Assembly: GCA_017532025.1 (NCBI GenBank)
Contig: JAFXJX010000092.1
Location: 22,642-86,641, forward strand
Length of the DNA: 64,000 nucleotides
Direction: 5' to 3'
Origin: Clostridia bacterium
Lineage (GTDB): Bacteria > Bacillota > Clostridia > Oscillospirales > CAG-272
Shown here piece after piece: positions 1 through 48,117 of this stretch. Position 1 is the stretch's first letter, and each line of letters begins with the position of its first letter. Position numbers and translations under genes: made by a program. The notes beneath the pieces are model-generated. The model saw only the letters and a list, made by a program, of their open reading frames with translations. It was not told where the DNA came from and did no database searches.

Positions 1-1932
1 AAGCGAATCGGTCACACAGCTCATGGTGCAGCCGGGAGAAGCTTCGGTCTGACCGTAAACCGATACGATTTCTTTCATATTCATCTTGTCAGCCGCTTCG
101 CGCATCAAATCAGCAGGACAGTTTGCGCCCGCCATAATACCGGTGCGGATATACGAGAAATCAGTTTTGGCAAAATCATCGTGACGAAGCATGGCAATGA
201 ACATGGTCGGCACGCCGTTGAAGCAGGTGATATGCTCACGGTTGATGCATTCGAGCGCAGGCTTCGGAGAGAAATACGGCAGCGGATAGAGCGTTGCACC
301 GTGTGTCATCGAAGAAGTCATCGAAAGCACCATGCCAAAGCAATGGAACATCGGCACCTGGATCATCATGCGGTCAGCCGTGGAAAGATCCATTTTATCG
401 CCAATGCACTTACCGTTATTGATGACGTTATAGTGGGTCAGCATAACGCCCTTCGGGAAGCCGGTTGTACCCGATGTGTACTGCATATTGCAAACATCGT
501 CAGGCTTAACAAGCGAAGCCAGGCGTTTCACCTCGTCCATCGGCACGTTCTTGCCGAGCGCAAGAGCTTCCTTCCATGTCAAGCAACCGTTTTGCTTGGA
601 ATCAATGGTAATCACATTACGAAGGAAGGGCAAACGCTTGCAGTGAAGCGGCTCGCCGGGAACGGTATTTTCAAGCTCAGGACAGAGCTCTTTGATGATG
701 CCGATATAGTCGGAATCGCGCCAACCATCAACCAACACAAGGGTATGCGTATCCGACTGACGGAGCAGATATTCCGCTTCGTGACTCTTATACGCGGTAT
801 TCATGGTCACAAGCGCCGCACCAATCTTGGCAACTGCCCAAAAAGCAATATACCACTGCGGCACGTTGGTTGCCCACACGGTCACATGAGAGCCGGGCTT
901 CACACCAAGCGCAATCAAGGCACGGGCAAATTCGTCCACATCGTTACGGAATTCGGTATAAGTTCTGGTATAGTCCAGTGTGGTATAGCGGAACGCAAGC
1001 TGATCGGGAAAAACATCCACAACGCGATCAAGAAGCGAACCGAAAGTTTCGTGCACCAAGCTGTACTTCGGCCAAATGAAGCGGCCTGTACCCGCGCGAT
1101 TCTGATAAAGCGCCACTTCACGGTGCTGTTTGATTTCAAAACGCTCCATGTAGGTCACAAAGTGCGGGAACACAATGGTGGGATCAGCAAGCTCTGCCGC
1201 CCACTGCGGATTCCATTCAAAAGAAAGATATCCATCGTAGGTTACCGAGCGAAGCGCGTTGACAAAGCGTTCAACCGGAAGATCACCCTCGCCCATCAGG
1301 CAGTAGGTTACCGAGTCTCCGCTTCCCTTCAAGTCCTTGATATGCACGTGCTTGATGTACGCGCCGAGGTTTTCCACCGTCTTCTCCGGCTCTTCGTGGA
1401 AGAGTCGGTAAGGATGGGAAATATCCCAAAGTGCCGCAAGCTCATCGCAAGCGAATACGCCGAGAACACTTGCAAGGCGGGCGGTATCAGCATAAATGCC
1501 GGAGCTTTCCACCAAAAGCACAATCTTTTTCTCTTTGGCAAGCGGGATCGCCTTTTCCAAAAAGGCAACAACAGCGGCATCGGCTTCTTCTTTGGTCTGC
1601 CATTCAATTTCCTTGGCATACAAACGCACATACGGCGCGTGAGCGGCTTTGGCAGCAGAAAGATAGCGAGTGAGTGTTTCTAAATTTTCCCCAATCTTTT
1701 CGCTGTCTGCCATATTGAAAACCGTGTCCAGACAAGGAATCGAAAGCCCCATATTGGCAAGCTTTCGAGAAGCGGCAGGAGTGTTTTCCGAAAAGATCGC
1801 ACCGCTTGCTGTAAAAGCAGGTTTATCTATATCATGAATCTCAATACCGGAAAACTGCATCTCCTTAGCAAAAGAACAGTATTCAGCCCAGGAGTACCCT
1901 TTCCAGTAATCGGTAGAAAATGCAAGTTTCAT
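1..1932 (-). CDS. Fusion protein: N-terminal xylose-isomerase-like TIM-barrel (sugar phosphate isomerase/epimerase-type) domain + AMP-dependent synthetase/ligase (acyl-CoA-synthetase-like) domain; C-terminus runs off the window
   Basis: Minus-strand frame is open from ATG (CAT at 1930-1932) to position 1, which is 644 codons. It is missing from the ORF track only because it has no in-window stop. Hand translation starts MKLAFSTDYWKGYSWAEYCSFAKEMQFSGIEIHD and continues without a stop into an adenylating domain. That domain carries the AMP-binding signature MQYTSGTTGFPKGVMLTH. The 181-1683 plus ORF is its antisense shadow. Confidence 0.8.
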   Translation of the reverse strand, partial: MKLAFSTDYWKGYSWAEYCSFAKEMQFSGIEIHDIDKPAFTASGAIFSENTPAASRKLANMGLSIPCLDTVFNMADSEKIGENLETLTRYLSAAKAAHAPYVRLYAKEIEWQTKEEADAAVVAFLEKAIPLAKEKKIVLLVESSGIYADTARLASVLGVFACDELAALWDISHPYRLFHEEPEKTVENLGAYIKHVHIKDLKGSGDSVTYCLMGEGDLPVERFVNALRSVTYDGYLSFEWNPQWAAELADPTIVFPHFVTYMERFEIKQHREVALYQNRAGTGRFIWPKYSLVHETFGSLLDRVVDVFPDQLAFRYTTLDYTRTYTEFRNDVDEFARALIALGVKPGSHVTVWATNVPQWYIAFWAVAKIGAALVTMNTAYKSHEAEYLLRQSDTHTLVLVDGWRDSDYIGIIKELCPELENTVPGEPLHCKRLPFLRNVITIDSKQNGCLTWKEALALGKNVPMDEVKRLASLVKPDDVCNMQYTSGTTGFPKGVMLTHYNVINNGKCIGDKMDLSTADRMMIQVPMFHCFGMVLSMTSSMTHGATLYPLPYFSPKPALECINREHITCFNGVPTMFIAMLRHDDFAKTDFSYIRTGIMAGANCPADLMREAADKMNMKEIVSVYGQTEASPGCTMSCVTDSL

Positions 1933-1952
1933 AGCATTTGTCTTCTTTCTTA

Positions 1953-3344
1953 TTATTGCTCTTCAAATACAATTTTGTTCAGTGCGTTAACATAGGCGCG
2001 GAGCGAAGCACCAATGATGTCAGTCGAAACACCGCTGCCCGAATATACCTTACCCTGACTGCGCAGACGCACAAGCGCTTCACCCATGGCTTCCTGACCG
2101 CGAGTTACCGAGCTGATGCGGAAATCGTCGAGCTCGTAGGTCGAGCCGATCACTTTTTCCACCGCGAGGAATGCCGCGTCAATCGGACCGTTACCAATCG
2201 AAACGCCATGGCGAATCTCGCCGTCTTTTTCAATCTCCACCTGTGCCATCGGCGAAATGCGGTCGCCGCTGTTCACAATATACGAACGCAGAATATAGGT
2301 GGGAGGAACTTCGTCTGCCACATTGGCAACAATGATTTCAAGCTCCTTACCACTGACAGATTTTCTTTCGGCAAGCTTTTCAAACGCTTTATGCACCTTG
2401 GCAAGGTCATCGCTCGAGATCTCATAGCCCATGTGCGCCACAACGTCAGCAATCTGACCGATGGTTGTGCCCTTGGCAAGCAAAATCTCATCCGAATCCT
2501 CAACGCTTTCCACCGCGGTGGCAACGCCTTCGCGCTTTTCACCGTACAGCCAAGGCATTGAAGATGCCACGCGTGTCATCGCCGTGGGGTCAACCGAGGT
2601 GGCAAGTGCCCAATCGTTACCGCGCAGAGCAACCGTGCGAACAAATGCGCTGAGCGCCACAGCTTCATCGCCCACAAGAGAGGTCTTCACCGCCACAGCT
2701 TCGCCCATCACTGCGGCAACACTGTTGGCGCAAGCCATGGAAAGCGAATCGTTGCAACGCACGCCAATCGCCACGTGAGCAAACGCCTCGGAGGAATCAC
2801 GGAAATTTTTGAGGAAAGCTACGAGCTCGGTGGGCGTCGCAACGCCTTCACTATCGCACAAGGTGATGTATTTTGCACCCGATGCAAGGGCAAATTCACA
2901 CGCCCTTGTGAGGAATGCAGGCTCGCTTCTCACCGCATCAGCAGCAGAAAATTCAACCTCTTCGGTCAGTGCGGCGCAAGCCGAAACGCGCGCTTTGATC
3001 ATCTCAAGCACCTTGTCAGGCTTAGCATGACAGAAATACTCCATCTGCACCACCGATGTGGGAATTTCCACAACGAGTCTCTTGTTGGTCAAAGGAGACA
3101 GCGCCTCCCAAGCGGCATTTGCGGCATTATCTTCGTCCGAAACAAGCGCCGAAACCGTGGTGTTGCCCAAAAAAGGAAGCACGGTTTTGATAAAAAGCTT
3201 ATCTTCGCTCGTATTGCGAAGAGCGCCCGCCTCAATCACATCCACACCGAGGGCTGAAAGCTGTCTTGCCAAAATCAGGCGTTCTTTGAAGGAAAGCCCG
3301 CTGACACGGGAAAATGTGGTGTCAATCACTTGAATCTGTTTCAT
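1953..3344 (-). CDS. 2-isopropylmalate synthase/homocitrate synthase-like protein (DRE-TIM fold + C-terminal LeuA-dimer regulatory domain) with degenerate catalytic motifs
   Basis: 463-aa ORF with ATG and an AAGGAG RBS. The N-terminus VIDTTFSRVSG...LGVDVIEAG aligns to the LeuA motif DTTLRDGEQ...GVD.IE.G. The C-terminus (NGPIDAAFLAVEKV...VSTDIIGASLRAYVNALNKI) resembles the LeuA allosteric domain. The RDGEQ and HxH motifs are replaced (see findings). Confidence 0.75.
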   Translation of the reverse strand: MKQIQVIDTTFSRVSGLSFKERLILARQLSALGVDVIEAGALRNTSEDKLFIKTVLPFLGNTTVSALVSDEDNAANAAWEALSPLTNKRLVVEIPTSVVQMEYFCHAKPDKVLEMIKARVSACAALTEEVEFSAADAVRSEPAFLTRACEFALASGAKYITLCDSEGVATPTELVAFLKNFRDSSEAFAHVAIGVRCNDSLSMACANSVAAVMGEAVAVKTSLVGDEAVALSAFVRTVALRGNDWALATSVDPTAMTRVASSMPWLYGEKREGVATAVESVEDSDEILLAKGTTIGQIADVVAHMGYEISSDDLAKVHKAFEKLAERKSVSGKELEIIVANVADEVPPTYILRSYIVNSGDRISPMAQVEIEKDGEIRHGVSIGNGPIDAAFLAVEKVIGSTYELDDFRISSVTRGQEAMGEALVRLRSQGKVYSGSGVSTDIIGASLRAYVNALNKIVFEEQ

Positions 3345-3365
3345 ACATCAATACTCCTTGATTCA

Positions 3366-3626
3366 CAAAATAAAAGCCCCCGAAGCTTACGCTTCGGGGA
3401 CGAAAAAATCGTCGGTACCACCCGAATTGCAGAAAAACTGCCACTCACAAGGCTCTGAATAAAGCCCTTTGCCATGGTAACGGGGCAAACCGAAGTTCTT
3501 TACTACATCCTTCAAGAACCCTGCTCCGGAGCGAGATTGCAACAAGGCTTCCCCACCGACTCGCAGCAACCGTCGGCTCTCTGAAGAGGTTTTGACCCCA
3601 TGCATAACTCCATCTTTGCATTTACG
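3366..3626 (-). promoter_or_regulatory. T-box riboswitch leader with intrinsic terminator, upstream of the LeuA-like gene
   Basis: The minus strand reads in the canonical order. Elements are the AGAGAG (GA/K-turn) motif in stem I, the AGTA box (GTAGTAA), the F-box CCGTTA, and the T-box core AATTCGGGTGGTACCGACG (plus coordinates 3410-3428). The terminator is CCCCGAAGC-GTAA-GCTTCGGGG followed by CTTTTATTTT (3366-3400). Confidence 0.85.
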
Positions 3627-3632
3627 AGAAAC

Positions 3633-3661
3633 ATCTTACCACAACAAATCCGATTTGTCAA
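3633..3661 (-). promoter_or_regulatory. Sigma-A type promoter for the T-box leader (TTGACA-17 nt-TAAGAT)
   Basis: The minus strand has TTGACA at 3656-3661, a 17-nt spacer, and TAAGAT at 3633-3638. Confidence 0.55.
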
Positions 3662-3699
3662 GAGTTTTTTGTCATTTTTTTAATCCATGCGGGCAAATC

Positions 3700-3728
3700 T
3701 TGACTTTTTTCTTTTGTCTGTATATAAT
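3700..3728 (+). promoter_or_regulatory. Sigma-A type promoter (TTGACT-17 nt-TATAAT) for the metallophosphoesterase gene
   Basis: TTGACT lies at 3700-3705 and TATAAT at 3723-3728 with 17-nt spacing, about 30 nt upstream of the ATG at 3757. Confidence 0.6.
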
Positions 3729-3756
3729 AAAAAGGAAGAAAGCCAAGGAGTTTTGT

Positions 3757-4470
3757 ATGAAGATTACCCGATACGAGCTGAAAACCAACAACAAAAAAAC
3801 ATATAAAATCGTCATTCTTGCCGATCTACACTCAACTGTGCCTGAAGGTCTGCTTGAAACCGTCAAGAAAGAAGCCCCCGATCTTATTGCCATTCCCGGA
3901 GACTGCATCGACTATACCGTTTCGCACGCGCTGAATATGCTCCCCTTTCTTCATTCGCTTGCCGAAATTGCTCCCACCTATTACAGCGACGGCAACCACG
4001 AACTTTTCAAAGAAGAAGACGTTAGAGCCGTGGAAGAAACAGGCGTTCGTTTCTTGTTTGATCAAACAGTCACGCACGGCGAACTTGTGATCGGCGGCCT
4101 TGCCTCCGGATTTGGGTTCGGAGAACAAGGCAGATGGAAAACAACACCCGCCCCAAATACCGATTACCTAAACGAGTTTTCACGTGAACCAGGCTTCAAA
4201 ATTCTGCTCTCTCACCATCCCGAATATTATAAACCCTATCTCAAAGCGCTTCCGATCGATCTTATCATCTCAGGTCACGCGCATGGCGGACAGTGGCGTG
4301 TGTTCGGTAGAGGTGTCTTTGCCCCCGGTCAGGGAATCTTTCCCAAATACACATCGGGTGTTCATGAAAACCGCTTTGTCATCAGCCGCGGTCTTGGCAA
4401 CCACACCGTCATCCCCCGCATCTTCAATAGACCCGAAATCGTGGTGCTTACCTTAACGGGAAATCAATAA
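3757..4470 (+). CDS. Metallophosphoesterase (calcineurin-like phosphoesterase family)
   Basis: ATG at 3757 is preceded by AAGGAG. Motifs appear in family order: LADLHS, GDCIDY, GNHE, SHHP, GHAHGGQ. The longer 3592 start in the ORF track has no RBS and overlaps the promoter region. Confidence 0.85.
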   Translation: MKITRYELKTNNKKTYKIVILADLHSTVPEGLLETVKKEAPDLIAIPGDCIDYTVSHALNMLPFLHSLAEIAPTYYSDGNHELFKEEDVRAVEETGVRFLFDQTVTHGELVIGGLASGFGFGEQGRWKTTPAPNTDYLNEFSREPGFKILLSHHPEYYKPYLKALPIDLIISGHAHGGQWRVFGRGVFAPGQGIFPKYTSGVHENRFVISRGLGNHTVIPRIFNRPEIVVLTLTGNQ

Positions 4471-4483
4471 TTCTGTAGTACAA

Positions 4484-4706
4484 TGTTTCATCTAAAACTT
4501 TACATTTGGCAATACCGCGAGATCCGACCCGTCCTGTTTGCAGGCCGAGTCGCCCTGCGCTACGCTTGGGTTTCGACTGCACACCGCCCCGTGTCATCCT
4601 GAGCGACGCGAAGCAAAGTCGAGGCGCAGCCGAAGTGGGATCTCGGGCGGTGTTCCGCTCAAGATGACACGCGGAGTGAAGTGCATGTAAAGTTTTCGTT
4701 GAAACA
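4484..4706. mobile_element. MITE-like non-coding element: 223 bp bounded by 22-bp imperfect terminal inverted repeats, with a GC-rich structured interior
   Basis: TGTTTCAtctAAAACTTTACAT (4484-4505) is the inverted complement of ATGTAAAGTTTTcgtTGAAACA (4685-4706), matching 19 of 22. The interior holds a second inverted pair, GTGTCATCCTGAGCG (4591-4605) with CGCTCAAGATGACAC (4656-4670). A crossing pair also exists, CCGCGAGATCC (4515-4525) with GGGATCTCGGGCGG (4637-4650). There is no ORF. Confidence 0.45.
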
Positions 4707-4740
4707 AGTTACCTTTTTCATCTATCATCTAACCAAAGCA

Positions 4741-4767
4741 CCCCGACAGTTTTTGATTCTGTCGGGG
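4741..4767. terminator. Hairpin between convergent genes (metallophosphoesterase / AraC regulator)
   Basis: CCCCGACAG-9 nt loop-CTGTCGGGG forms a perfect 9-bp stem 12 nt below the AraC stop. The flanking T-runs are weak. Confidence 0.5.
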
Positions 4768-4778
4768 TGATATCATTT

Positions 4779-5573
4779 TTATAGCGTATGCAAATACAAA
4801 CCGCCCTGCTCGCCCTCGGCGCGTTTTTCGGTGGGAGACATCCCGTAACGCTTGCGAAAATCGCGGTAAAAGGTGGAAAAATCGTTATACCCCACCTCGC
4901 GCGAAATCTCCGCCACCGATTTTTCGGTGGTAAGCAAGAGATGCTCGGCAAGCGTCAGGCGTTCTTTTAACAAATACTGATAGGGCGTGATTCCAAACTC
5001 TTTCTTGAACAGACGTATGGTATAATCCTCCGAATAGCCGTAACGCTCTGCGATTTGGGCAAGCGAAAGCTGACTGCGGCACTCAGTGGAAATCATGCGC
5101 TGAATATCCTTGGCAATCATCGTGCGCGTGTTTTCGGGCACAACTTGATGCTCAATTTCGGCAAGAAGCTCATACATCAAGCCATTCAAAGCAAAAAAGC
5201 CACTCTCATGGGCGAGATAGCGTCGATCGTATTCTTCCATCAACGCGCGAATGGCGCTTTTGTTGAACCTGCCGCGAATCGGAATGCCGTCCGCTTCGTT
5301 TTCTGAATAGGTTGCGTGAAAATGCAAATAGAGATACGAAGGACGCTCACTTACCGCCTTTCCGCTTTGGAAAAGCCCTGCACGCTGAATGTAATATTCC
5401 CCCTCAGAAAGCTCCACAAGCACGCCGTCTTCCTCAAAACGCAGCACGCCTTCCATCATAAAGATCAAAACGCTCTCGTCGAACACGCGACTCACGTGAT
5501 GCTCACGCCGTTCAAAGCGTTTAAAGCCGCTGTATATAAATTCGGGAAGCGGTTTTCGGCAAAGATACCACAT
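4779..5573 (-). CDS. AraC family transcriptional regulator (cupin-type N-domain + C-terminal HTH)
   Basis: The C-terminal region (LSLAQIAERYGYSEDYTIRLFKKEFGITPYQYLLKERLTLAEHLL...VGYNDFSTFYRDFRKRYGMSP) is a typical AraC HTH pair. The ATG at 5573 has a GGAG 8 nt upstream. The gene is divergent from a glycoside-hydrolase-like gene. Confidence 0.85.
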   Translation of the reverse strand: MWYLCRKPLPEFIYSGFKRFERREHHVSRVFDESVLIFMMEGVLRFEEDGVLVELSEGEYYIQRAGLFQSGKAVSERPSYLYLHFHATYSENEADGIPIRGRFNKSAIRALMEEYDRRYLAHESGFFALNGLMYELLAEIEHQVVPENTRTMIAKDIQRMISTECRSQLSLAQIAERYGYSEDYTIRLFKKEFGITPYQYLLKERLTLAEHLLLTTEKSVAEISREVGYNDFSTFYRDFRKRYGMSPTEKRAEGEQGGLYLHTL

Positions 5574-5709
5574 ATCAGTTCTCCGTTGTTCACTATATCG
5601 ATTTTTGCAATTAAGTCTTCGGTTATTGTACTTGTACATTGCACGTATTTGTGTTATTATAACAAAAAAGAGAGTCTTTTGTCAACATAATTTGGAAAGG
5701 ATTTTGAAC

Positions 5710-7545
5710 ATGCTACGAAATTTGCAATATACGCCCTTTTCTGCAAATGCCATCAAGCCTGAAGGATGGTTGAAAAAGCAGCTCACAATCCAAGCAAACG
5801 GTCTTGCGGGCAATCTTGACAAAATTTGGCCCGATATTAAGGACAGTATGTGGATCGGCGGTAGCCGCCATGACTGGGAAAGAGTGCCCTATTGGCTCGA
5901 CGGCTTCATTCCGCTTGCCTATCTTTTGGATGATGAAGACATGAAACAGCGAGCCAAAACCTATGTTGACGGCATTGTTGACCGCCAGAGGGAAGACGGT
6001 TGGCTCTGCCCTTGCCGTTCCGAGCAGAGACGGCATTACGACACTTGGGCAGCCCTTCTCCTTTGCAAGGTGCTTGCACTATACTGTGACGTAACAGGCG
6101 ACAGCCGCGTCGAAGACGCGCTTTACAAAGGTCTTAAGCAATTCTCTGACCACATCAATGGTGCCACCCTTCACGACTGGGGTGCAACCCGTTGGTTTGA
6201 AGGCTTGATTCCGATCTTTTGGCTGTATGAAAAACGCCCTGAATCCTGGCTGCTCCTGCTTGCCAAAAAGCTGAATATACAAGGCTTTGACTGGGAAAGG
6301 GTCTTTGCCACCGATATGCTCGATGAGCTTACCGACGGCTGGGATTATATCTCCCACGTTGTCAATCTCGGCATGATGTTAAAATCCCGTGCCTTAATGT
6401 CGCGCATCACGGGCGAAGACCCCGAAGCGTTTGCCCAAAAAGCCTACGCTTGGCTGTATGAAAATCACGGCATGGCGTGCGGGCACTTCACAGGAGATGA
6501 GAATCTCTCCACCACAAGCCCGATTCAAGGCAGCGAGCTTTGCAGTGTCAACGAGGCTATGTTTTCGTTTGAAAATCTCTTTCAGATTTCGGGCAATCCG
6601 TATTGGCTCGATCTTGTCGAAAAAGAAGCCTTTAACGCTCTGCCCGCCACAGTCAGCCCGGATATGTGGACACATCAATACGTGCAAATGACCAATCAGG
6701 TCGAATGCTCGCGCACGCCGCACCGCGTCTTTCGCACCAACAACGAAGAAGCGCACATCTTCGGTCTTGAGCCACATTACGGTTGCTGTACCGCCAATAT
6801 GGGTCAAGGCTTCCCAAAATTCGCGCTTTCCTCGCTTTACAAAACAAAAACAGGCATTGCCTGCGGCATTCCCCTGCCCATGACGCTTGAAAGTGAAATC
6901 AACGGCACTCACCTTACCTGTCAGGTTATCACCGACTATCCCTTCCGAAGTGAGGTGCGCTTTGTCTTCCGTGCCGAAGCCCCTGTTTGCTTTGATTTCA
7001 CTTTACGCATTCCGTCGCACGCATCCTCTGCCAAAGTGAATGGAAAAGATGTTGCTTGCGGTATGTACACCTTGCCGCTTTCTGTAACAGACACAACCGA
7101 AATCACGCTCTCGCTTGATTTTACCACCCGTTTTGAAAGACGTCCGAGCGGTATGCTCGCTCTGTGGCACGGTCCGCTTCTCTATTCTCTCCCGATTGCC
7201 GAGCGCTGGGAAATGCGCGAATATGAGCGTGACGGCGTGGTGAGAAAATTCCCCTACTGCGACTATTACATCTATCCCGAATCAGACTTCAACTACGGTT
7301 TTGCTACGTCGGATATCGAAAAAATTACCGTTTGTGAAGAAGATTTCGATGCACCCTTCACTCCAAAACAGCCGCCGATCAGGTTGAAACTGCCCATGGC
7401 AAAGGTCGCTTGGGAAAAGCCGGACGGCAGATGCGCCCTTCACCCCGTTTCGAACAAAGCGATAAGCAATATTGAAACTGTCACCTTAATTCCCTACGGC
7501 TGCACCAACCTCCGCATGACCGAAATGCCGCTGATTGAAGAATAA
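5710..7545 (+). CDS. GH127/GH146-like glycoside hydrolase (beta-L-arabinofuranosidase/DUF1680-type)
   Basis: ATG at 5710 follows GAAAGGA. The architecture and motifs resemble HypBA1-type enzymes: GSELCSVNEAMFSFENL (compare GETCASVAM) and the Cys-rich HYGCCTANMGQGFPKF (compare WFGCACCPANI). The gene is paired with a divergent AraC regulator. Confidence 0.6.
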   Translation: MLRNLQYTPFSANAIKPEGWLKKQLTIQANGLAGNLDKIWPDIKDSMWIGGSRHDWERVPYWLDGFIPLAYLLDDEDMKQRAKTYVDGIVDRQREDGWLCPCRSEQRRHYDTWAALLLCKVLALYCDVTGDSRVEDALYKGLKQFSDHINGATLHDWGATRWFEGLIPIFWLYEKRPESWLLLLAKKLNIQGFDWERVFATDMLDELTDGWDYISHVVNLGMMLKSRALMSRITGEDPEAFAQKAYAWLYENHGMACGHFTGDENLSTTSPIQGSELCSVNEAMFSFENLFQISGNPYWLDLVEKEAFNALPATVSPDMWTHQYVQMTNQVECSRTPHRVFRTNNEEAHIFGLEPHYGCCTANMGQGFPKFALSSLYKTKTGIACGIPLPMTLESEINGTHLTCQVITDYPFRSEVRFVFRAEAPVCFDFTLRIPSHASSAKVNGKDVACGMYTLPLSVTDTTEITLSLDFTTRFERRPSGMLALWHGPLLYSLPIAERWEMREYERDGVVRKFPYCDYYIYPESDFNYGFATSDIEKITVCEEDFDAPFTPKQPPIRLKLPMAKVAWEKPDGRCALHPVSNKAISNIETVTLIPYGCTNLRMTEMPLIEE

Positions 7546-7589
7546 AACTCCCCCATTGGCGTACCTGCGATAGAGCAGGATTGAAAAAC

Positions 7590-7635
7590 AACAACCGCCG
7601 AGAGAGACCAATCACAGTCTCGCTCGGCGGTTGTT
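7590..7635. terminator. Bidirectional intrinsic terminator between convergent genes
   Basis: AACAACCGCCGAG (7590-7602) pairs with CTCGGCGGTTGTT (7623-7635) in a 13-bp stem. It is flanked by A-rich sequence on the left and T-rich sequence on the right. Confidence 0.7.
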
Positions 7636-7638
7636 AAA

Positions 7639-9276
7639 TTATTTAGGCAATCTGTCACAAAACATCAAAAGGTTTGATGTTACTTTTTCATCCTCTGTAA
7701 GAGGACGAAACGTACCGTTTTCATAAAGAATATCCATAACCATTAGCGCAACTGTTCGTCCGACAAAGCCACCGGTTCTATAAGTTACTACAAGATCCCG
7801 CATCTGCGGCGGATACTCTTTCGCAATCAGCATTGCTCGCTCCAATGCATAGTCTGCTAAAGTTTTCTTAAGTTCTTCATCAAGTGATGGTAACTTGGAG
7901 AAGAACTCATTTTGGTCGCCATACATCACCATAATATTGACCTTGTTATCCTTAGTCAAATATCCACGATCTCTCAGACGGTCAAATTTTTCTTTGTTAG
8001 CAGGGGTATCTTCTATAGCCCCCATCATAAACTCGTACAAATATTCATAATCCGAAGTAAGATTGTTTTCCCAAGCACCCTTGCGCGAACAATAGCGTGT
8101 ATCGATCGACCAAGAATATACAGTGGGATATTTTTCCGACCAACGATTCATATTCCCACAAGCCCAATAAGATGGATAACTTTGGAACGGAACATACTCA
8201 GGATCACTCTGTGTTGCGGGAATAGAAACGTAAGCAATAAAATCACCGCCAGCCAAGGTCTTTATATGGTATTTTGAGAGATCTGTTTTGGGCGTGATAC
8301 TACATTTGTTGGTTATGGCGTAGAATATTGCAGCCGCTTCCAACAATTCTCGATTTCCGGTTGGAATATAAATATTCTTTACGTCAGCAACAGCTGCCCT
8401 TACCTGTGGTACATATTCACGTACCAAAAGCTTGGCGATCTCCATTTGCTTTTGCTTGCATTTGTCCTGCTGTTCAAGTGAGTATGTTTGGGGATTAAAA
8501 TCTACATATGTCGTGTAGCGATTTCCTGCTTGCTCTACCAAAAAACCGTTTGCTACCAGTTCCTTAACGGCATCTTCAATATAAACGGGAGTAACGCCCA
8601 ACTCTTCAGCGATTTCAACCATTGTTCTCGGAGTATGGTAAACGCTATATACAATATTTAGATTTAATTTGTTTTTCAAATAAAACTCGGTTGCCCCATT
8701 CTGCCCCGGATTCCCGCCATGACCAAAGCTTTCTGCTTCAATTGGTTTGATACCAAGTTTTCCGATTTTTCTTTCCATTATAAAACCTTCTTTCAATTCA
8801 TTTCTTGCCTTGTTCAGATGCCATTTGATTGTACCCTCGGGAATTTCTATTTCTTTGGCAATTGTAGAGATAGACTTGTTTTCGTAATAAAATGAATATA
8901 TGATTTTACGACGTATCTGTGTTAAAAAAGCAATTTCGCGCCGTAACAAATCAATCTTCGCTTCGGAATCCTCGTCCGCAATCAATGCCTCGTCCGCAAT
9001 CAATGTATTATCGGAAATACTTATTCCGTCTATCGAAATTCCTTCTCTTTTTTTCTTGTGAGATACAAATTTCGAATAAACATGCTTGGAGATTCTCCAA
9101 ATATATCCGTCTACATTTAGTATTTCATTTGCCGAAAGCAAAGATAAATAAACTTCTGAAACAATATCAGAGCTTAATTCTTCCGCTTCTTCATAAGAAA
9201 ATGATTTTTTCATGGCAAAACCATAAATTTTAGGCAGATACTCAACGATCAACTCGTCTGCTTGTTGTTTTTTCAT
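7639..9276 (-). CDS. Sigma-70 family (ECF-like) RNA polymerase sigma factor fused to a large soluble C-terminal domain containing a second winged-helix-like segment
   Basis: The N-terminal ~170 aa have a sigma region 2-like segment (IVEYLPKIYGFAMKK...DIVSEVYLSLL). They also have a region 4 HTH (KSISTIAKEIEIPEGTIKWHLNKARNELK). About 370 further residues follow with no TM segment. The ATG at 9276 has a GAGG 7 nt upstream. The gene is visibly AT-rich. Confidence 0.7.
   Translation of the reverse strand: MKKQQADELIVEYLPKIYGFAMKKSFSYEEAEELSSDIVSEVYLSLLSANEILNVDGYIWRISKHVYSKFVSHKKKREGISIDGISISDNTLIADEALIADEDSEAKIDLLRREIAFLTQIRRKIIYSFYYENKSISTIAKEIEIPEGTIKWHLNKARNELKEGFIMERKIGKLGIKPIEAESFGHGGNPGQNGATEFYLKNKLNLNIVYSVYHTPRTMVEIAEELGVTPVYIEDAVKELVANGFLVEQAGNRYTTYVDFNPQTYSLEQQDKCKQKQMEIAKLLVREYVPQVRAAVADVKNIYIPTGNRELLEAAAIFYAITNKCSITPKTDLSKYHIKTLAGGDFIAYVSIPATQSDPEYVPFQSYPSYWACGNMNRWSEKYPTVYSWSIDTRYCSRKGAWENNLTSDYEYLYEFMMGAIEDTPANKEKFDRLRDRGYLTKDNKVNIMVMYGDQNEFFSKLPSLDEELKKTLADYALERAMLIAKEYPPQMRDLVVTYRTGGFVGRTVALMVMDILYENGTFRPLTEDEKVTSNLLMFCDRLPK
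8970..9005. repeat. Perfect 18-bp tandem duplication inside the sigma-fusion gene
   Basis: CCTCGTCCGCAATCAATG occurs at 8970-8987 and again, immediately adjacent, at 8988-9005. It is in frame and encodes the duplicated peptide LIADEA/LIADED in the linker between the sigma regions. Confidence 0.9.
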
Positions 9277-41382: not shown

Positions 41383-44300
41383 TCATTCTTTTCGTGAACG
41401 CGCTTTCTTGATAACATAATAGCAAACCAAGAAAGCGATAACAGCAAGACACAAGATTGAACCAACAATAATCAAGACGATCACATACGTCGGCAAACCG
41501 TCCTCCGCACTGAGTTTAGGGATAGATTCTGTCTTGGTATGACCACATACCGTACACCTGTAGCTCATAATGCCCTCTTCATCTGTCGTTGCAGGCTTAA
41601 TCACAACACCCTCAGCATATGTATGCGGAATGTTAGGATCATCTTGGCAAGTGAGTTCCGCAATCGTATAGGTAAACCCGACAGTGGCACTAGGAGTCAT
41701 GCCCTCCTTGATTGCATAAGCAATGATTGTCACATCCTCCGTGATCGTAATGGGTCCGTCATACCGAATTCTTGCAGGATTGTTTTCATCGCACGGGCAG
41801 GAAAGATCGAGTGTATAATAAATGGTTGCGCCCTCTGTCTCTGTGCTGAGAGTAATCTGTGTTCCGGCAGGCACCTTACTACCGCTCTCTAGATTCGATG
41901 TAACCTTTTGGCAGGTATTGGCACGAGCCGCTGTCTGCGATATCACAGTTACATCTGCTGTAAGATCTGTACCTTCCACAGTAAGACGTATCTTCCCTGT
42001 CCCGGGAAGTTCACCTTGCAGAGTGATCAAGGCTCTTCCGTTTTTATCTGTTATGACAGACGCCGTTGAAACAGAGATAATATCGGGTGTCAATGAGGTT
42101 ACACAAACAGTTTTGTTTGCACCTGCTTCTTTGGGAAGCAGTTCAACAATGAAGTGTGCGCTATCGCCATAAACCACCGTTGCCGATTGCGGCACAACAA
42201 GGTCTTTCGGTAGGAGATAAACCTTCAACTCCTCTTCATAGCCGTTCGCCATAGCCGTTCCTGCATAATTGATAACACCTTGAATCGAAACTTTCACGCT
42301 ATCGCCCAACTTAGTCTCGGGGATAAATGTGAAAACACTCGCATATTCCACGTTAGGGTCGTCAAAAGATGTCTCCGCATTTATCGGAACAATCTTACCC
42401 TCAACCGTTTTGCCGTCAGCAGTAACCGTTACAGTGTGCGTGTTAATGCTATCAATCCGCATATATTGGCTAAATGCAATGCGCACGCTTTCGGTATAAG
42501 CATTCACCTGCTTCACGGTAGGCGCCATCTTGGAAACCAACGCAATATTCACTTCAGTTTGCGGAGGCGGTACAGGCAAGTAGCCGTTTTCATCGGCGTC
42601 GGGATCATTTCTCGAATCCGCATCATAATAACCGTCTTTCGAGAATTTCACAAGCCACTGTCCCATAGGAACATCCCATGCGTACCGTCCCTCTTTGTCG
42701 GTATAAAGCGGATTGACCTGATCCCATTCTTCGGCATTCCAGAAAACATCGCCCTTTTCGCTATCGTAATAGTAGGCTTCCACCTTTACACCCTCCAAAC
42801 GGTTGGAAGGCACAGCTTCGCACACATAACCGGAGGGGTCGATGAGGAGCGGTACATCGACACCGTCACCCGGCACAGCTTGGTTCCGAGGTTTGTTTTC
42901 AGGTTTACCATCATCGGGATCATCTTCCGGGTCCTCGGGGCATTTCGCCGCGGCATAGATTCTGTCTCTCAGATTATCCAGTTTTTCCATGTATGATTCA
43001 TGCGTTTTCTTGATGGTATAATCAAGCGTTTGGCTTCTCAGCATACCGGCGCCCAGCATTCCAAAGCTGCCCGCCGCCGCAACTGAGTGCAGGCATACGT
43101 ATGAGCTCACCACCGAGCTGGCATGCGGCAAAAGACCGAGCGCTCCGTTAAGCAGCGCGCTGTACATCTGATACGCTTCCACTTCCAGGTACAAACCCTC
43201 GCGCGCGGCATAATAATCCAGAACCAATGCCGTGTACTCTGCATAGAATGCCTGATATTGCGCCGTAGACAACGCATAGCTTCCGTCAGGGCATTTTCTT
43301 TCAAGTGCCAAAGGCAACAGCTCTGCCCATGAAGTAAAGATAATATCGTTGTTTTTAATCAAGTTGTTCAGTCTCGCCACGTCCAAACACAATACAAAGT
43401 TACCTGCCAGTCCCAACGAAGCAAAATCCATGAGCACTGCGGCGATACTGAGCATACCTTGCGCATATTGCATTCCTCCTTGTGGTGACAGATCATACGA
43501 CGCCACACTCGGTACGTTATTGGCATACCAGGTTTCATCTATCACCACCGAACAGCTAACATGCTGCTTGGCACTCGGAATCACAATCTCGTAGGTTTCG
43601 CTGAAGGGCGTGTTGCTCTTTTTCACGTAAACGACCGTGTTTTCACCGTCGATCATCTTGGTGTAGCCGTCTTTCAGCAGAACATCCTCGCTCTTTTGGG
43701 TATAGGTCAGCGTATTCTGAGCCATCCGCATGATCGGTGCGTTATCATTTTGCTTGTCAACCAAAACGTAGGTGATCGAGCTATCAGTTTCTTCGCTAAC
43801 AACGCCGATGTCTTCAGAAAAACCCACACCAAACTTTTCAAGTTCTTCCCCGGTCTGCAAAACGCCGTCATAGAAGTTTTGTTCGTTGATATAAGCTGTA
43901 TCGTTTTCACTTTCCGTAAACACAACGTTATAGCCGCAAGGGAGATCGGTTGAGTCTTTGTAGGTAATACTGCCTACCCAAATATCCGTTCCGGGTTTAT
44001 TCGTCATAGGAATATAAGTTTCTTTTCCGTTGGTTCCCGCAGTCACAACGTAAACGTCACTTAAACGCTTCGCTGAGCCGTTGGAAAAAGCAACGCGAAA
44101 AGAGTATGAACAATTACCCGTCCAAGTATACTGACTTGGATATTCGTTTTCCCGAATATTGAGCGTTATCGTTTTATCGCCGTTGATCACCTCAATGGTT
44201 TCCACGTAACAAAAGTCTTCCCGATAATGCAACCAAGACATTGCCGTTTCGTATTCAATGTCGTTATACTCGCTCTGAATATTGGCGTAGATAGCATAAT

Positions 44301-47300
44301 ACGAATTGTTTTTCGGCTCGTTCAGCCGAATGGTAGCCCGATAGTTTCCCGATGCATTTGCCGTCACCGTTGCCACAACAACGCCGTTGCTAAATACCGT
44401 AACCTTACTTTTGGCAGGCGCTTTTCCGTTTATTATCACGGAATCGGTGCCCGTCTTTTCAGGAATCAGAATTGTTGCATTTGCTATTTTCAGCGAGATC
44501 GTACCAACAGACTGCGTAATGTTGTCACCGCCCATAGAGAAAGCAAGAGACGCATTGACAACACACTCCGAGGAAGCAGTCAGAGGAACAACGTAAACGT
44601 ATAAAATGCCTTCGGATTCATTCGTATAAATCGTCAGCACCTGTTCATCCAGCGTATAGTTCACAGCCGTTTTGTTCCAATATACGCCTTGGGATAACAC
44701 GGTAAAGCCTTCGGGCAATTCAAGAATAACCGTTTCTCCCGATGCCTTGTAAGATGGCTTAAGTTTATATTCACAACGAAGCAGCAACGTTGTTCCCACC
44801 ACACAGCTTGTATGGTTAGCTGTAAAAAGGGTATTTTCTTTTTCGATGTACCAAAAACGTTCTTCTTCAAACACGGGTACTGTGAGATCAGTTATTTCGG
44901 TCACTTTTCCGTTTTGAACCGAAACCCTCCGCAAGACGTAGTCAACATCCTTTGCCATACCACAGGCGTTCAACTTGGAAAGATGGTCCATATTATCAAG
45001 AAGTGAGGAACGACCCATAAGAACAACGTCGTACTCACCTGCAGCAAGCGGCATTGACGCGTAAGTTTCACCAATATTCTCGTAAAGAACTCGATTCCCT
45101 TTGGAATCAAACACCATAACACAATTCTTGGCGTTGCCAAGGTTACGGTAGATGCTCAACCGCCCATTTTCCAAAAGCACAAGATTTGCCTCGGCAAGAC
45201 AATTTTCATCCAATTGCACAACAACCGTCTCGGCAGTCTTCACCCCATAGGTGTCAACCATTTGAATTTCCAATGTATCATACGGAGAAACCGTATCCGC
45301 CGCCGGAATCAGGTACGGATACTGAGCTGTAAAGTCAACAATTTCGTTTTGTGTGGTTTGGTTAAAAAGGCGGAAGGACAAGCCGTCAAAATTCAAAAGC
45401 TCAGACTGCAAAAATTGCTCATCATCCAAAGATGTGCCGATCACAACACCCGAAAGCATTATTCTGCACGTAGGCAGTGGCGTCATTTGTACATCGCCAA
45501 GCGATATATTTTTTGAAAGCTCCTCACCTGAGATAGACACAAGGCGATTGTAATACGTATCCGCGCGGATGCGGAGTTTGGTTGACAGACACAGCGCATC
45601 GAAAGCGAAATATCCGTTTTCATCCACAGATATCGAATAATCCTTTGAAAAACTCTCCGCATACTGTATCACCGTCATAGAAGCACCATTGATCTCGTTG
45701 CCCAGCAAATCGGTGACTCGTCCACTCACCGTAACCGTTTCAAGGCGCGAAAGTGTAAGCGAAACATCAGTAACTTCAGAGGGAACAGCATCCCCCGCGT
45801 GAGCCTGATACACAAACGCCAAATCCTCGCCCAACACAACCCGAAAACGTAAGTCATCCGGTCGTTTTGTCAAAACGATTGTATTGCCCTTACCCAAAAG
45901 AACAGTGCCGTCATACCAAAGCACGTCATAATCTGCCTCCGACACTTGACCGTCATCACCGAAAACCTTTGCCGAAAAAGAAATCTTCGAACCATCCTCA
46001 TGAGTAACGTATTCAAAAGAAACTCCGTGCGCTCTGGCATAGTCTTCGCCACAACTGCCCAAATGAACAAAGAGTACCAGTTCCGGATCAGACGTATTAA
46101 AAGCCGAATCGGCAATACTCGTTATATGAAGAGGGATACGTATAGACATGCCAACAGAACAAAACGCTCTTTCGGCAATACTCGTCACACTTTCATCATC
46201 CGGAATCACACTGTTTTTACACCCAAGGAGCAAAGTTTTGCTTGCTGTTTCAATCAAAGTATTTCCTGCCGAATGGTAAACTTCGTTTCCTTCTTCAACC
46301 GTAATACTGCTAAGACTTTCGCATGATCCAAAAGCTTCAAAGCCAATGCTTGTCACACTATTTGGAATGGTAATTGATGTAACACCCGTGCAGCCATAAA
46401 AGGCCCAGGCACCAATTTCTGTCACACCGCTTGGAATCGTAACAGAAACAAGGTCTTTGCATCCCTTAAACGCGCCGTTACCGATACTCGTTACACTGCC
46501 GTCAGTCGGAATCACACTGTTTTTACATCCAAGGATTAAGGTTTTGGTTGCTGTTTCGATGATCGTATTTGCTGCAGAATGGTAAACCTCGTTTCCTTCT
46601 TCAACCGAAATGCTGCCAAGATTTTCACAAAATTCAAAGACATTTTCGTTAATTCTCGTTACATTGGCAGGAATCGTGATAGATTCAAGAGCCGTGCAAT
46701 CTCTGAAAGCATCGTAACCGATCTGCTCCAATTGCTTGGGAAGCACAACCGAACGAAGCTTTTCACAATAAACAAAGGCATAGGTTCCAATAAAACCAAT
46801 ACCATCCGGAATCACAACCGATTCAAGACTTGTGCAACCATAAAAACAACTTCCCGGAATCGTAGTCAGCCCCTCAGAAAGCGTAACCGATTTAAGGCTC
46901 GTGCACCAATTAAACATCCTTTCGCCTATATAAGTCACGCTATTAGGAATCGTAATTGTCTCAAGACTTTCACAACCATCAAACATAGATTCGCCTATAT
47001 AGGTCACACCGTCGGCAATCGTAACCGAAGTCAGGTTAACGCAGTTTGTAAATACGTTGTCACCAATTTCGGTTACACCTTGGGGAATCGCAACAGAAAC
47101 AAGACCTGCCATTTCCTCAAAAGCGCCGTCGGCAATGCTTATTACGCTTCCGTCATCAGGAATCACGCTGTTATTACAGCCCTGGAGCAGTTCTCCATAC
47201 CAATTTATCAGCGTATTCCCTGCCGAATGGTAATCCTTGTTTTCTTTGGCGACTGAAATGCTGTTCAGCCCTGTACAACGGTTAAACGCCGATACAGCAA

Positions 47301-48117
47301 TACCCGTTACGCTTGCCGGAATCGTAATCGAAGTCAGGCTGATACAACCCTGAAACGCTCTGTAGCCAATACGCTCCAAGCCTTCGGGAAAGGTTATTTC
47401 CGTAAGCTGTGTGCAAGAGCCAAATGCATCGCTGTTTATTGTTTTCAATTGACTGTTTGGAGAAACAGTTACGCTGACAAGACTTTCACAATTCAAAAAA
47501 GTGCTGTCACTGATTTCGGTCAACGCATCCGGAATCACAAACGATTCAAGGCTTGTGCAACCTTGAAAGGCAGACGAATATATCTCCGCAAGCTCGCTGT
47601 TTTCGGAAATATCCACTGAAACCAAACTTTCACAGCCCTCAAACGCATTTCCTTGAATCAATGTCACACTCGCAGGGATTGAAATTTCTCTTAGCGATAC
47701 ACACTGAGAAAAAGCATTCCAACCGATTGTTGTCAATCCGTCGGGCAAAACGACAGACGCAAGATTCGAAAATTCGTAAAAAGCGGAACTTCCAATTTGC
47801 AATATACCGTCTGAAAGAACAAGGGAAACCACCTGTTCTTTGAGGTTGGGATCCAAATTCTCAAATTGAAATTCATCAATTTTGTCGGTATTGCTGATGG
47901 TCAGCTTACCTTCGCTATCAAGCACGGCATCAAAATCATAATCGTCAAACGTAAGCATACCGTTTTCTTCCGTCCCCTGATCGGGCGTGGTGGGAATCCA
48001 TATAACACCCCCGCCACCCTCAACAAAATCAAGTGCCATAATTGGCATTTGAAGCATTCCAAACAAAATGGAAAGCGCTAAAAACAGACTCATAAATCTT
48101 CGAGTAAAACCACGCAT
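41383..48117 (-). CDS. Giant (2244 aa) cell-surface protein: signal peptide, ~600 aa of BspA-type leucine-rich repeats, beta-sandwich/Ig-like and carboxypeptidase-regulatory-like domains, an internal hydrophobic helical module, Big_2-like and chitobiase/FN3-associated-like domains, C-terminal TM anchor
   Basis: ATG follows a GGAGG RBS. The signal peptide is FMSLFLALSILFGMLQMPIMA. LRR units of the IPxxVTxIGxxAFxxCxxLxSV type are repeated about 25 times. Near the C-terminus are the motif GATIYYTLD and the anchor YVIVLIIVGSILCLAVIAFLVCYYVIKKARSRKE. Confidence 0.9.
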   Translation of the reverse strand: MRGFTRRFMSLFLALSILFGMLQMPIMALDFVEGGGGVIWIPTTPDQGTEENGMLTFDDYDFDAVLDSEGKLTISNTDKIDEFQFENLDPNLKEQVVSLVLSDGILQIGSSAFYEFSNLASVVLPDGLTTIGWNAFSQCVSLREISIPASVTLIQGNAFEGCESLVSVDISENSELAEIYSSAFQGCTSLESFVIPDALTEISDSTFLNCESLVSVTVSPNSQLKTINSDAFGSCTQLTEITFPEGLERIGYRAFQGCISLTSITIPASVTGIAVSAFNRCTGLNSISVAKENKDYHSAGNTLINWYGELLQGCNNSVIPDDGSVISIADGAFEEMAGLVSVAIPQGVTEIGDNVFTNCVNLTSVTIADGVTYIGESMFDGCESLETITIPNSVTYIGERMFNWCTSLKSVTLSEGLTTIPGSCFYGCTSLESVVIPDGIGFIGTYAFVYCEKLRSVVLPKQLEQIGYDAFRDCTALESITIPANVTRINENVFEFCENLGSISVEEGNEVYHSAANTIIETATKTLILGCKNSVIPTDGSVTSIGNGAFKGCKDLVSVTIPSGVTEIGAWAFYGCTGVTSITIPNSVTSIGFEAFGSCESLSSITVEEGNEVYHSAGNTLIETASKTLLLGCKNSVIPDDESVTSIAERAFCSVGMSIRIPLHITSIADSAFNTSDPELVLFVHLGSCGEDYARAHGVSFEYVTHEDGSKISFSAKVFGDDGQVSEADYDVLWYDGTVLLGKGNTIVLTKRPDDLRFRVVLGEDLAFVYQAHAGDAVPSEVTDVSLTLSRLETVTVSGRVTDLLGNEINGASMTVIQYAESFSKDYSISVDENGYFAFDALCLSTKLRIRADTYYNRLVSISGEELSKNISLGDVQMTPLPTCRIMLSGVVIGTSLDDEQFLQSELLNFDGLSFRLFNQTTQNEIVDFTAQYPYLIPAADTVSPYDTLEIQMVDTYGVKTAETVVVQLDENCLAEANLVLLENGRLSIYRNLGNAKNCVMVFDSKGNRVLYENIGETYASMPLAAGEYDVVLMGRSSLLDNMDHLSKLNACGMAKDVDYVLRRVSVQNGKVTEITDLTVPVFEEERFWYIEKENTLFTANHTSCVVGTTLLLRCEYKLKPSYKASGETVILELPEGFTVLSQGVYWNKTAVNYTLDEQVLTIYTNESEGILYVYVVPLTASSECVVNASLAFSMGGDNITQSVGTISLKIANATILIPEKTGTDSVIINGKAPAKSKVTVFSNGVVVATVTANASGNYRATIRLNEPKNNSYYAIYANIQSEYNDIEYETAMSWLHYREDFCYVETIEVINGDKTITLNIRENEYPSQYTWTGNCSYSFRVAFSNGSAKRLSDVYVVTAGTNGKETYIPMTNKPGTDIWVGSITYKDSTDLPCGYNVVFTESENDTAYINEQNFYDGVLQTGEELEKFGVGFSEDIGVVSEETDSSITYVLVDKQNDNAPIMRMAQNTLTYTQKSEDVLLKDGYTKMIDGENTVVYVKKSNTPFSETYEIVIPSAKQHVSCSVVIDETWYANNVPSVASYDLSPQGGMQYAQGMLSIAAVLMDFASLGLAGNFVLCLDVARLNNLIKNNDIIFTSWAELLPLALERKCPDGSYALSTAQYQAFYAEYTALVLDYYAAREGLYLEVEAYQMYSALLNGALGLLPHASSVVSSYVCLHSVAAAGSFGMLGAGMLRSQTLDYTIKKTHESYMEKLDNLRDRIYAAAKCPEDPEDDPDDGKPENKPRNQAVPGDGVDVPLLIDPSGYVCEAVPSNRLEGVKVEAYYYDSEKGDVFWNAEEWDQVNPLYTDKEGRYAWDVPMGQWLVKFSKDGYYDADSRNDPDADENGYLPVPPPQTEVNIALVSKMAPTVKQVNAYTESVRIAFSQYMRIDSINTHTVTVTADGKTVEGKIVPINAETSFDDPNVEYASVFTFIPETKLGDSVKVSIQGVINYAGTAMANGYEEELKVYLLPKDLVVPQSATVVYGDSAHFIVELLPKEAGANKTVCVTSLTPDIISVSTASVITDKNGRALITLQGELPGTGKIRLTVEGTDLTADVTVISQTAARANTCQKVTSNLESGSKVPAGTQITLSTETEGATIYYTLDLSCPCDENNPARIRYDGPITITEDVTIIAYAIKEGMTPSATVGFTYTIAELTCQDDPNIPHTYAEGVVIKPATTDEEGIMSYRCTVCGHTKTESIPKLSAEDGLPTYVIVLIIVGSILCLAVIAFLVCYYVIKKARSRKE
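46201..46632. repeat. Intragenic ~306-nt direct duplication within the LRR region
   Basis: CGGAATCACACTGTTTTTACA...GGTAAAC.TCGTTTCCTTCTTCAACCG occurs at 46201 and again at 46507, offset by 306 nt (102 aa). The copies encode SI(T/S)VEEGNEVYHSA(G/A)NT(L/I)IETA(S/T)KTL(L/I)LGCKNSVIP. A third, diverged copy lies upstream in the protein. Confidence 0.85.

Follow-up and report, generated by a model that had tools for sequence, protein, structure and literature searches.

A complete and genuine leucine T-box leader, with its own promoter and terminator, stands before a two-gene operon at one end of a 64,000-nucleotide stretch of contig JAFXJX010000092.1 (assembly GCA_017532025.1; hereafter the window), from a Clostridia bacterium of the order Oscillospirales. 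The first gene encodes a LeuA-like protein that lacks the catalytic motifs of LeuA, and the second encodes a fusion of a TIM barrel with an AMP-forming acyl-CoA synthetase (ACS), here called TIM-ACS. It is proposed that the operon probably supplies the activation step of a leucine branch, with an isovalerate-CoA ligase feeding reductive carboxylation to leucine and the LeuA-like protein acting as its sensor partner. The substrate, the direction of flux and the roles of the LeuA-like and TIM modules are the inferred parts of this reading.

The original prediction, drawn from the letters of the DNA alone, described a complete T-box leader, and an Infernal search against Rfam bore this out. Scans of positions 1-8000 and then of the whole window returned a single Rfam family, RF00230 (T-box). 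Its covariance model matched over its full length (positions 1-219 of 219) at 3393-3625 on the minus strand, with 102.9 bits against a gathering score of 93 and an E-value of 1.7e-22, and the match takes in Stem I, Stem II, the Stem IIA/B region, Stem III and the antiterminator. A consensus scan also recovered the predicted promoter of the leader, a sigma-70-type TTGACA-17-TAAGAT with a TG-extended -10 element, at 3661-3633(-) (10/12 matches).

All parts of the leader lie on the minus strand. Stem I (3521-3622) contains a kink-turn (K-turn) with its GA motif, the specifier loop, the AGAGA bulge (3582-3578) and the distal loop GGUUGCUGCGA (3571-3561). Stem II (3494-3520, model positions 106-132) forms a GAA...AGUA S-turn that includes the AGUA box at 3504-3501, and the F-box CCGUUA occupies 3483-3478. 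The T-box core GGGTGGTACCG lies at 3423-3413, where the Rfam alignment places GGGUGGUACCG with the antiterminator bulge UGGU for the NCCA 3′ end of tRNA. The single terminator-like hairpin in the terminator scan, at 3401-3376(-), has 11 pairs, 8 of them G-C, and is followed by TTTTATTTT; hairpin and U-tract together make up an intrinsic terminator at 3366-3401. The 5′ arm of this terminator overlaps the 3′ arm of the antiterminator, and the strand CGUCCCC is common to both. The AGAGA, AGTA and F boxes and the core were all found where they had been predicted, the predicted strong terminator was confirmed, and the structural hallmarks of a T-box are present: K-turn, codon plus purine, AG bulge, distal loop and UGGN antiterminator bulge. 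Beyond the terminator, AAGGAG at 3359-3354 precedes the ATG of the LeuA-like open reading frame (ORF) at 3344. A 72-residue ORF at 3387-3605(-), also called on the source contig (locus L001, 9740-9958), is contained wholly within the leader and is almost certainly an artefact of ORF listing, not a gene.

The original prediction had read the specifier as CUU (Leu) within 3509-3520, with UUC (Phe) as the alternative. The amino acid stands, but the codon and its location do not, and the Phe alternative falls. On the minus strand, the 3′ side of the specifier loop reads CAAU-CUC-G (C3535, U3534, C3533 and the purine G3532), and the helix CUCC (3531-3528) that comes after G3532 pairs with GGAG; the specifier at 3533-3535 is therefore CUC (Leu). 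As an independent check, RNAalifold was applied to 36 orthologous Stem I sequences. The resulting fold has 22 pairs, 18 of them with compensatory changes, and leaves the CUC columns unpaired just 5′ of the basal helix. The segment GGTTCTTGAAGG (3520-3509), from which CUU or UUC would be read, is assigned by the Rfam alignment to the 5′ strand of Stem II and its S-turn, and both codons were rejected.

Readable specifiers in 57 orthologous T-boxes all encode Leu, with CUC in about 49 and CUG in 8, after automatic parsing had been corrected by eye for nine leaders. Synonymous switching between CUC and CUG is expected if selection acts on Leu identity. The reading of specifiers was checked with a positive control, a T-box 5′ of a metNIQ-like transporter, which gave AUG. 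This Met T-box, at 8170-8417(-) of locus L084, is divergent from the Leu T-box of that locus and stands before a metNIQ-like ATP-binding cassette transporter.

The linkage of the gene pair to the T-box proved to be conserved across Clostridia. A genome scan with one genome per species yielded 80 loci from Oscillospiraceae, Acutalibacteraceae, Lachnospiraceae, Ruminococcus, Faecalibacterium, Christensenellaceae and other groups; the closest in the scan is a goat-colon metagenome-assembled genome (MAG), at 93% identity. Wherever the contig continues, the TIM-ACS gene directly follows the LeuA-like gene (80/80). Enough upstream sequence for a T-box test was available for 79 distinct loci, and an nhmmer profile built from 46 leaders located a T-box directly 5′ of the LeuA-like gene in 57 of them. 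A first regular expression for the core had missed some leaders, for example that of L035, and Rfam at its gathering score recorded a T-box in 13 of 20 loci tested. Two MAGs labelled Bacteroidales and Synergistaceae (L062 and L050) carry a typical Clostridia-type operon, and these labels probably reflect binning error, not transfer.

Among the loci without a T-box directly upstream of the pair, seven carry the pair inside a longer operon. In locus L026, one Leu (CUC) T-box heads an operon that encodes, in order, a P-loop protein, a VOR-type 2-oxoacid:ferredoxin oxidoreductase (VOR), a branched-chain aminotransferase (BCAT), the LeuA-like protein and TIM-ACS. Seven of the loci without an adjacent T-box are Acutalibacteraceae, in which a strong promoter, TTGACTTT-17-TATAATA, takes the place of the T-box. 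Alignment of these regions (L013 1560-1990; L016, L028, L039, L065 and L078 5570-6004; L029 720-1150) revealed conserved boxes, TTGTGCAAAAT.CACA and TTGTTGCAGTATACGATTTT, flanking the promoter, and a palindrome, ACTTATAGTGCATAAGT. An Rfam E-value search of L028 5050-6050 found no T-box or other known RNA. A hidden T-box in these loci was rejected, as the L028 search gave no Rfam match and the aligned promoter with its operator-like boxes stands there instead; from its sequence, the region looks like one under protein-operator control.

The first gene of the operon, at 1953-3344(-), encodes a 463-residue protein in which Pfam recognises an HMGL-like barrel and a LeuA_dimer regulatory domain (E-values of 3.8e-30 and 1.7e-31). 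It had been predicted to be a catalytically dead relative of LeuA and not an ordinary leuA product, and both statements survive proper alignment. In alignment with the catalytic domains of solved LeuA structures, DTTF---SRVSG stands in place of DTTLRDGEQ, with a three-residue deletion, and the HxH metal motif (HCH) has become RCN. The protein scores below every NCBIfam LeuA cutoff, the best score being 279.6 bits against a cutoff of 532. The catalytic motifs are also absent from all 120 top homologues listed. The barrel retains some LeuA-type residues, namely VEF..DA.RSE, the Asp of TLCD, and the Glu and Lys in VQMEY..KKP, and the GxGPxDA loop is present in the LeuA_dimer domain. An AlphaFold2 model has a mean pLDDT of 86, and superposition of its barrel on the N-domains of bacterial LeuA proteins gave 2.2-2.4 Å; the best E-values in the structure search went to full-length Mycobacterium tuberculosis LeuA, including the Leu-bound entry 3fig. 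Because the folds match and the DTTLRDGEQ and HxH motifs are lost, the protein has a LeuA fold but not the LeuA catalytic machinery.

Conservation within the LeuA-like family is concentrated in the regulatory domain, the part that in true LeuA binds leucine; it has a mean column identity of 0.77 and 35 invariant residues, compared with 0.55 and 17 for the barrel. The family is large and consists of proteins of about 460-470 residues in Clostridia MAGs. Annotation calls its members 'hypothetical' or 'alpha-isopropylmalate synthase regulatory domain-containing protein', and in some sources 2-isopropylmalate synthase. Most likely, the LeuA-like protein has no catalytic function and acts as a partner of the ligase encoded by the second gene; the best guess as to its role is a leucine-binding subunit for feedback control of that ligase.

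The second gene begins with an ATG at 1932(-), after a 20-nt gap, and its ORF runs off the start of the window. The full fusion of 835 residues is found on the source contig (L001 11413-13920) and is identical to the window copy over their common part; on that contig, the operon ends after the LeuA-like and TIM-ACS genes. Pfam supported the fusion of a TIM barrel to an adenylate-forming enzyme that had been predicted at this distance. The N-terminal, xylose-isomerase-like TIM barrel (1108-1932(-)) matches AP_endonuc_2 with 74.7 bits against a gathering score of 31.1. The AMP-forming ACS domain (1-1077(-), cut by the window edge at residue 644) consists of AMP-binding and AMP-binding_C domains. 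Core motifs A3, A5, A7 and A8 and the A10 lysine are intact, with TSGTTGFPKG, YGQTE, TGD, RLKDMIIRGG and a C-terminal GK, the C-terminal ones being read from the full-length L001 copy.

The modules of the pair differ in their rate of change. Across families, the ACS domain is 70-78% identical to that of the window, compared with about 40% for the TIM and LeuA-like parts, and mean column identity is 0.83 for ACS and 0.58 for TIM. By these sequence comparisons, the TIM and LeuA-like modules are estimated to change at roughly double the rate of the ligase domain. A putative E-D-H-H-D-E metal-ligand set, with positions assigned from alignment to 8z1i and general family knowledge, is complete in 36 of 66 orthologues, the window's TIM barrel among them. 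It is substituted in the other 30, for example to ENHHDV (12 orthologues) or KDHHDE (7 orthologues). The fused barrel may be a docking or scaffold module for the LeuA-like protein.

The genomic surroundings of the pair were charted from Pfam-annotated contexts and a tblastn map of all loci, with partners sought within about 6 kb. Frequent neighbours are BCAT and either a four-subunit 2-oxoacid:ferredoxin oxidoreductase or a 1165-residue PFOR-type enzyme. Further neighbours are a small P-loop protein, an Amidohydro_2 protein and one or two fusions of helix-turn-helix (HTH), cupin and AMP-binding domains. BCAT, the oxidoreductase, an HTH-cupin ligase or several of these occur in 32 of the 43 loci with full flanks (oxidoreductase in 24, BCAT in 21, HTH-cupin ligase in 17). 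NCBIfam cutoffs were passed by BCAT (474 vs 307) and by the alpha subunit of the oxidoreductase as VorB (543 vs 399). The original prediction held that the operon fits none of the classes of gene that T-boxes normally control. This is too strong, because the context in relatives, with BCAT, VOR and parallel Ile and Val T-box ligases, places the pair in amino-acid supply. Neither leuCD nor leuB is adjacent to the pair on the source contig or in the annotated contexts of relatives.

The HTH-cupin ligases are proteins of about 755 residues with HTH_19, Cupin_2 and AMP-binding domains (L038 372-5566; L051 189-5448; L064, L066, L077 and L086 1661-4258; L087 2090-4641). Their best NCBIfam match is MbcS, below its cutoff. 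Each of their genes is preceded by its own T-box, with an AUC (Ile) specifier in 13 cases and GUC or GUA (Val) in 8, and the 21 proteins form two clusters that coincide exactly with the Ile or Val specifier. The cupin domains of these ligases may play a role corresponding to that of the TIM and LeuA-like modules in the Leu branch. The fusion of an HTH to an adenylate-forming enzyme recalls BirA-type enzyme/repressors.

Two neighbouring genes have less defined products. A 219-residue P-loop protein (L086 4258-4917, and equivalents) has a weak match to CbiA/MinD/ParA and no NCBIfam match; its gene lies just 5′ of that for the VOR delta subunit wherever both were mapped, and the protein may be a maturation or accessory factor. 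A 270-residue Amidohydro_2 protein (PF04909, no NCBIfam match) is encoded directly 3′ of TIM-ACS in 29 of 84 loci and in 18 of the 43 with full flanks (L086 12897-13709; also L012, L015, L019, L025 and others).

Leucine synthesis from a branched short-chain acid has precedent in physiology. Rumen anaerobes reportedly make leucine by carboxylating isovalerate, as described by Allison and co-workers. The classical anaerobe route leads from isovalerate to Leu, from 2-methylbutyrate to Ile and from isobutyrate to Val, by activation to an acyl-CoA, ferredoxin-dependent reductive carboxylation and transamination. For Prevotella, the reverse (carboxylating) reaction is still described as 'not proven' in a paper that cites the 1984 work of Allison (PMC7709123).

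In the mechanism proposed here, the anticodon of uncharged tRNA-Leu would pair with CUC in Stem I, and the free 3′ end of the tRNA would stabilise the antiterminator, so that RNA polymerase could pass the hairpin at 3401-3376 into the genes. The ACS domain of the fusion would activate isovalerate to isovaleryl-CoA. A VOR- or PFOR-type 2-oxoacid:ferredoxin oxidoreductase would convert this by reductive carboxylation to 2-oxoisocaproate, which BCAT would transaminate to leucine; these two enzymes adjoin the pair in most relatives and would be encoded elsewhere in the window's genome. The dead LeuA-like protein, with its conserved regulatory domain, may serve as the leucine-sensing partner of the ligase, and the TIM barrel as its dock. 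The biosynthetic direction is favoured because an AMP-forming ligase runs toward acyl-CoA, because T-boxes induce on starvation, and because the oxidoreductase and transaminase of L026 share a Leu T-box.

A wider reading can be offered tentatively. Many gut and rumen Clostridia may have a dedicated set of genes, previously unassigned, with which Leu, Ile and Val are made from branched short-chain acids in their surroundings. It would be composed of three ligases, each gated by its own T-box, a shared VOR and aminotransferase, and a dead LeuA as the obligatory leucine-sensing subunit of the Leu-branch ligase.

Several observations weigh against the isovalerate-to-leucine reading. VOR, BCAT and an Ile/Val ligase were all searched for and are absent from the window's 64 kb; a ligase, a 2-oxoacid:ferredoxin oxidoreductase and BCAT under starvation control co-occur in related loci, not within the window. 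No T-box lies directly upstream of the pair in 22 of 79 loci. The ligase falls below its nearest NCBIfam cutoff (PRK12583, 681.5 vs 832), no equivalog was passed, its nearest solved structures are distant, and its substrate specificity is deduced from context alone. The Leu ligase and the Ile/Val ligases belong to different ANL subfamilies with 22-29% identity, and from these sequences they are judged not to be simple paralogues. As regards the sensor, leucine binding by the LeuA-like protein and its contact with the ligase are inference, and a sequence search of the PDB with the regulatory domain, relevant to a binding pocket, gave one weak match (3f6g, E-value 0.0016). The intact ligand set in the window's TIM barrel leaves room for a catalytic role, and the Amidohydro_2 gene that comes after the pair in about 40% of loci has no explanation in this scheme.

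The same ligase could instead serve chiefly to prime the synthesis of iso-branched membrane fatty acids by supplying isovaleryl-CoA or a different branched acyl-CoA, sparing scarce leucine rather than making it. Such a purpose would be in line with classical labelling in ruminococci, in which isovalerate reportedly entered both leucine and lipids. Furthermore, Staphylococcus aureus MbcS, a branched-chain carboxylate CoA ligase that has been characterised, works in lipid primer supply (PMC11167679), and it is the protein that the Ile/Val ligases of these clusters match best. However, T-boxes normally induce genes that raise the cognate aminoacyl-tRNA pool, and the pair has BCAT and VOR as its neighbours, not genes for fatty-acid synthesis. 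Placing VOR and BCAT under a Leu T-box, as in L026, would be senseless for breaking leucine down to primers. A mainly lipid-directed ligase is considered unlikely, and the two roles are not mutually exclusive.

Another reading assigns new chemistry to the LeuA-like protein, the TIM barrel or both. With the ligase, and in many cases the Amidohydro_2 protein, they would form a multi-step pathway that reaches a leucine precursor from some compound that is not isovalerate. The complete E-D-H-H-D-E set in the window and in more than half of the orthologues, the LeuA-type residues kept in the LeuA-like barrel and the frequent downstream Amidohydro_2 gene would all suit such chemistry, as would the presence in the Leu branch of two extra TIM-barrel modules that the Ile and Val branches lack. 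Yet the metal and substrate ligands of LeuA are all lost across the family, TIM ligand positions are substituted in 45% of orthologues, both modules change at about twice the rate of the ligase domain, and the Amidohydro_2 gene is absent beside the window's own pair. An essential enzymatic step by the TIM or LeuA-like modules is disfavoured because of this decay of the ligand set and this fast evolution, and new chemistry is held to be improbable. Least credible is an ordinary T-box leuA operon, in which a divergent but active isopropylmalate synthase would sit by chance beside a generic fatty-acid CoA ligase. In its favour, leuA genes preceded by Leu T-boxes are familiar (PMC2494555), both domains of LeuA are recognised in the protein by Pfam, and some sources label members of the family 2-isopropylmalate synthase. 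This reading was nonetheless rejected, as the catalytic residues are lost, all LeuA equivalog scores lie far below cutoff, the pairing with TIM-ACS recurs in all 80 scan loci and no leuCD or leuB is adjacent; it is given hardly any credence. The leucine-branch activation step remains the preferred reading of the operon.

Other features of the region stand apart from the operon. A near-consensus promoter, TTGACT-17-TATAAT at 3700-3728(+), is directed away from the T-box and toward a divergent metallophosphoesterase gene, listed at 3592-4470(+) (Metallophos; 237 residues as called on the source contig). A very long ORF of 2244 residues lies at 41383-48117(-) of the window, and a 1256-residue LRR_5 protein is encoded on the source contig past the window's left edge.

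That branched short-chain acids act as growth factors for the fibre-degrading Clostridia of rumen and gut has been known since the 1960s, and it is the reason why ruminants receive these acids in their feed. The route from isovalerate to leucine has been known for 60 years; an assignment of genes to its activation step and regulation was not found in the searchable literature. The present locus and its relatives suggest a concrete gene set, with one ligase per acid, VOR or PFOR, BCAT and one T-box per amino acid, which could mark the capacity to turn branched acids into amino acids in metagenomes. They also extend the list of T-box cargo to acyl-CoA ligases and offer a large conserved family of dead LeuA proteins. 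No description of the pair, of T-box control of acyl-CoA ligases or VOR, or of the LeuA-like partner was found in the searchable full-text literature, comparative T-box papers included, although an earlier mention in the 2008 T-box survey or the 1984 pathway paper is possible. As an RNA element, the T-box is textbook material. Its cargo looks new, and so do the obligatory association of a dead LeuA with a TIM-ligase fusion and the three-way partition of branched-acid ligases among Leu, Ile and Val T-boxes.

Compared with the Leu T-boxes of Firmicutes, such as those of Bacillus subtilis leuS and the ilv-leu operon, the leader has the same RNA architecture (K-turn, AGAGA bulge, distal loop, Stem II S-turn, F-box, UGGU bulge and competing terminator) and likewise a Leu codon as specifier. 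It differs in its cargo, which is a dead LeuA paralogue and an acyl-CoA ligase fusion in place of a synthetase, canonical enzyme or transporter. In relatives it also differs in being one of three parallel T-boxes (Leu, Ile and Val), each gating its own ligase. The predicted steps match the isovalerate carboxylation route of rumen and gut anaerobes, and ACS, VOR or PFOR, and BCAT are clustered in relatives; that route was defined by physiology.

Like the window's enzyme, S. aureus MbcS is an AMP-forming ligase, and its task is the scavenging of branched short-chain carboxylic acids. The ligase of the window falls in a different ANL subfamily and is distinguished by its TIM barrel, its obligatory LeuA-like neighbour and T-box control. 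MbcS serves lipid primer supply. The LeuA-like protein shares with LeuA its fold and domain order (barrel, linker subdomains and C-terminal LeuA_dimer). Unlike LeuA, it lacks the Arg, Asp and Glu of the RDGEQ motif and the HxH ligands, and it falls below all model cutoffs.

HisZ, a dead paralogue of the histidyl-tRNA synthetase HisRS, is the histidine-sensing regulatory subunit of ATP phosphoribosyltransferase. The LeuA-like protein has no sequence relationship to HisZ, and its complex with the ligase and its leucine sensing are putative. The likeness lies in the proposed logic alone, in which an inactive paralogue from the same pathway becomes an obligatory partner with possible end-product control. 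If this is true, the dead LeuA as a leucine sensor would provide a new case in which a pseudoenzyme has become an allosteric regulator.

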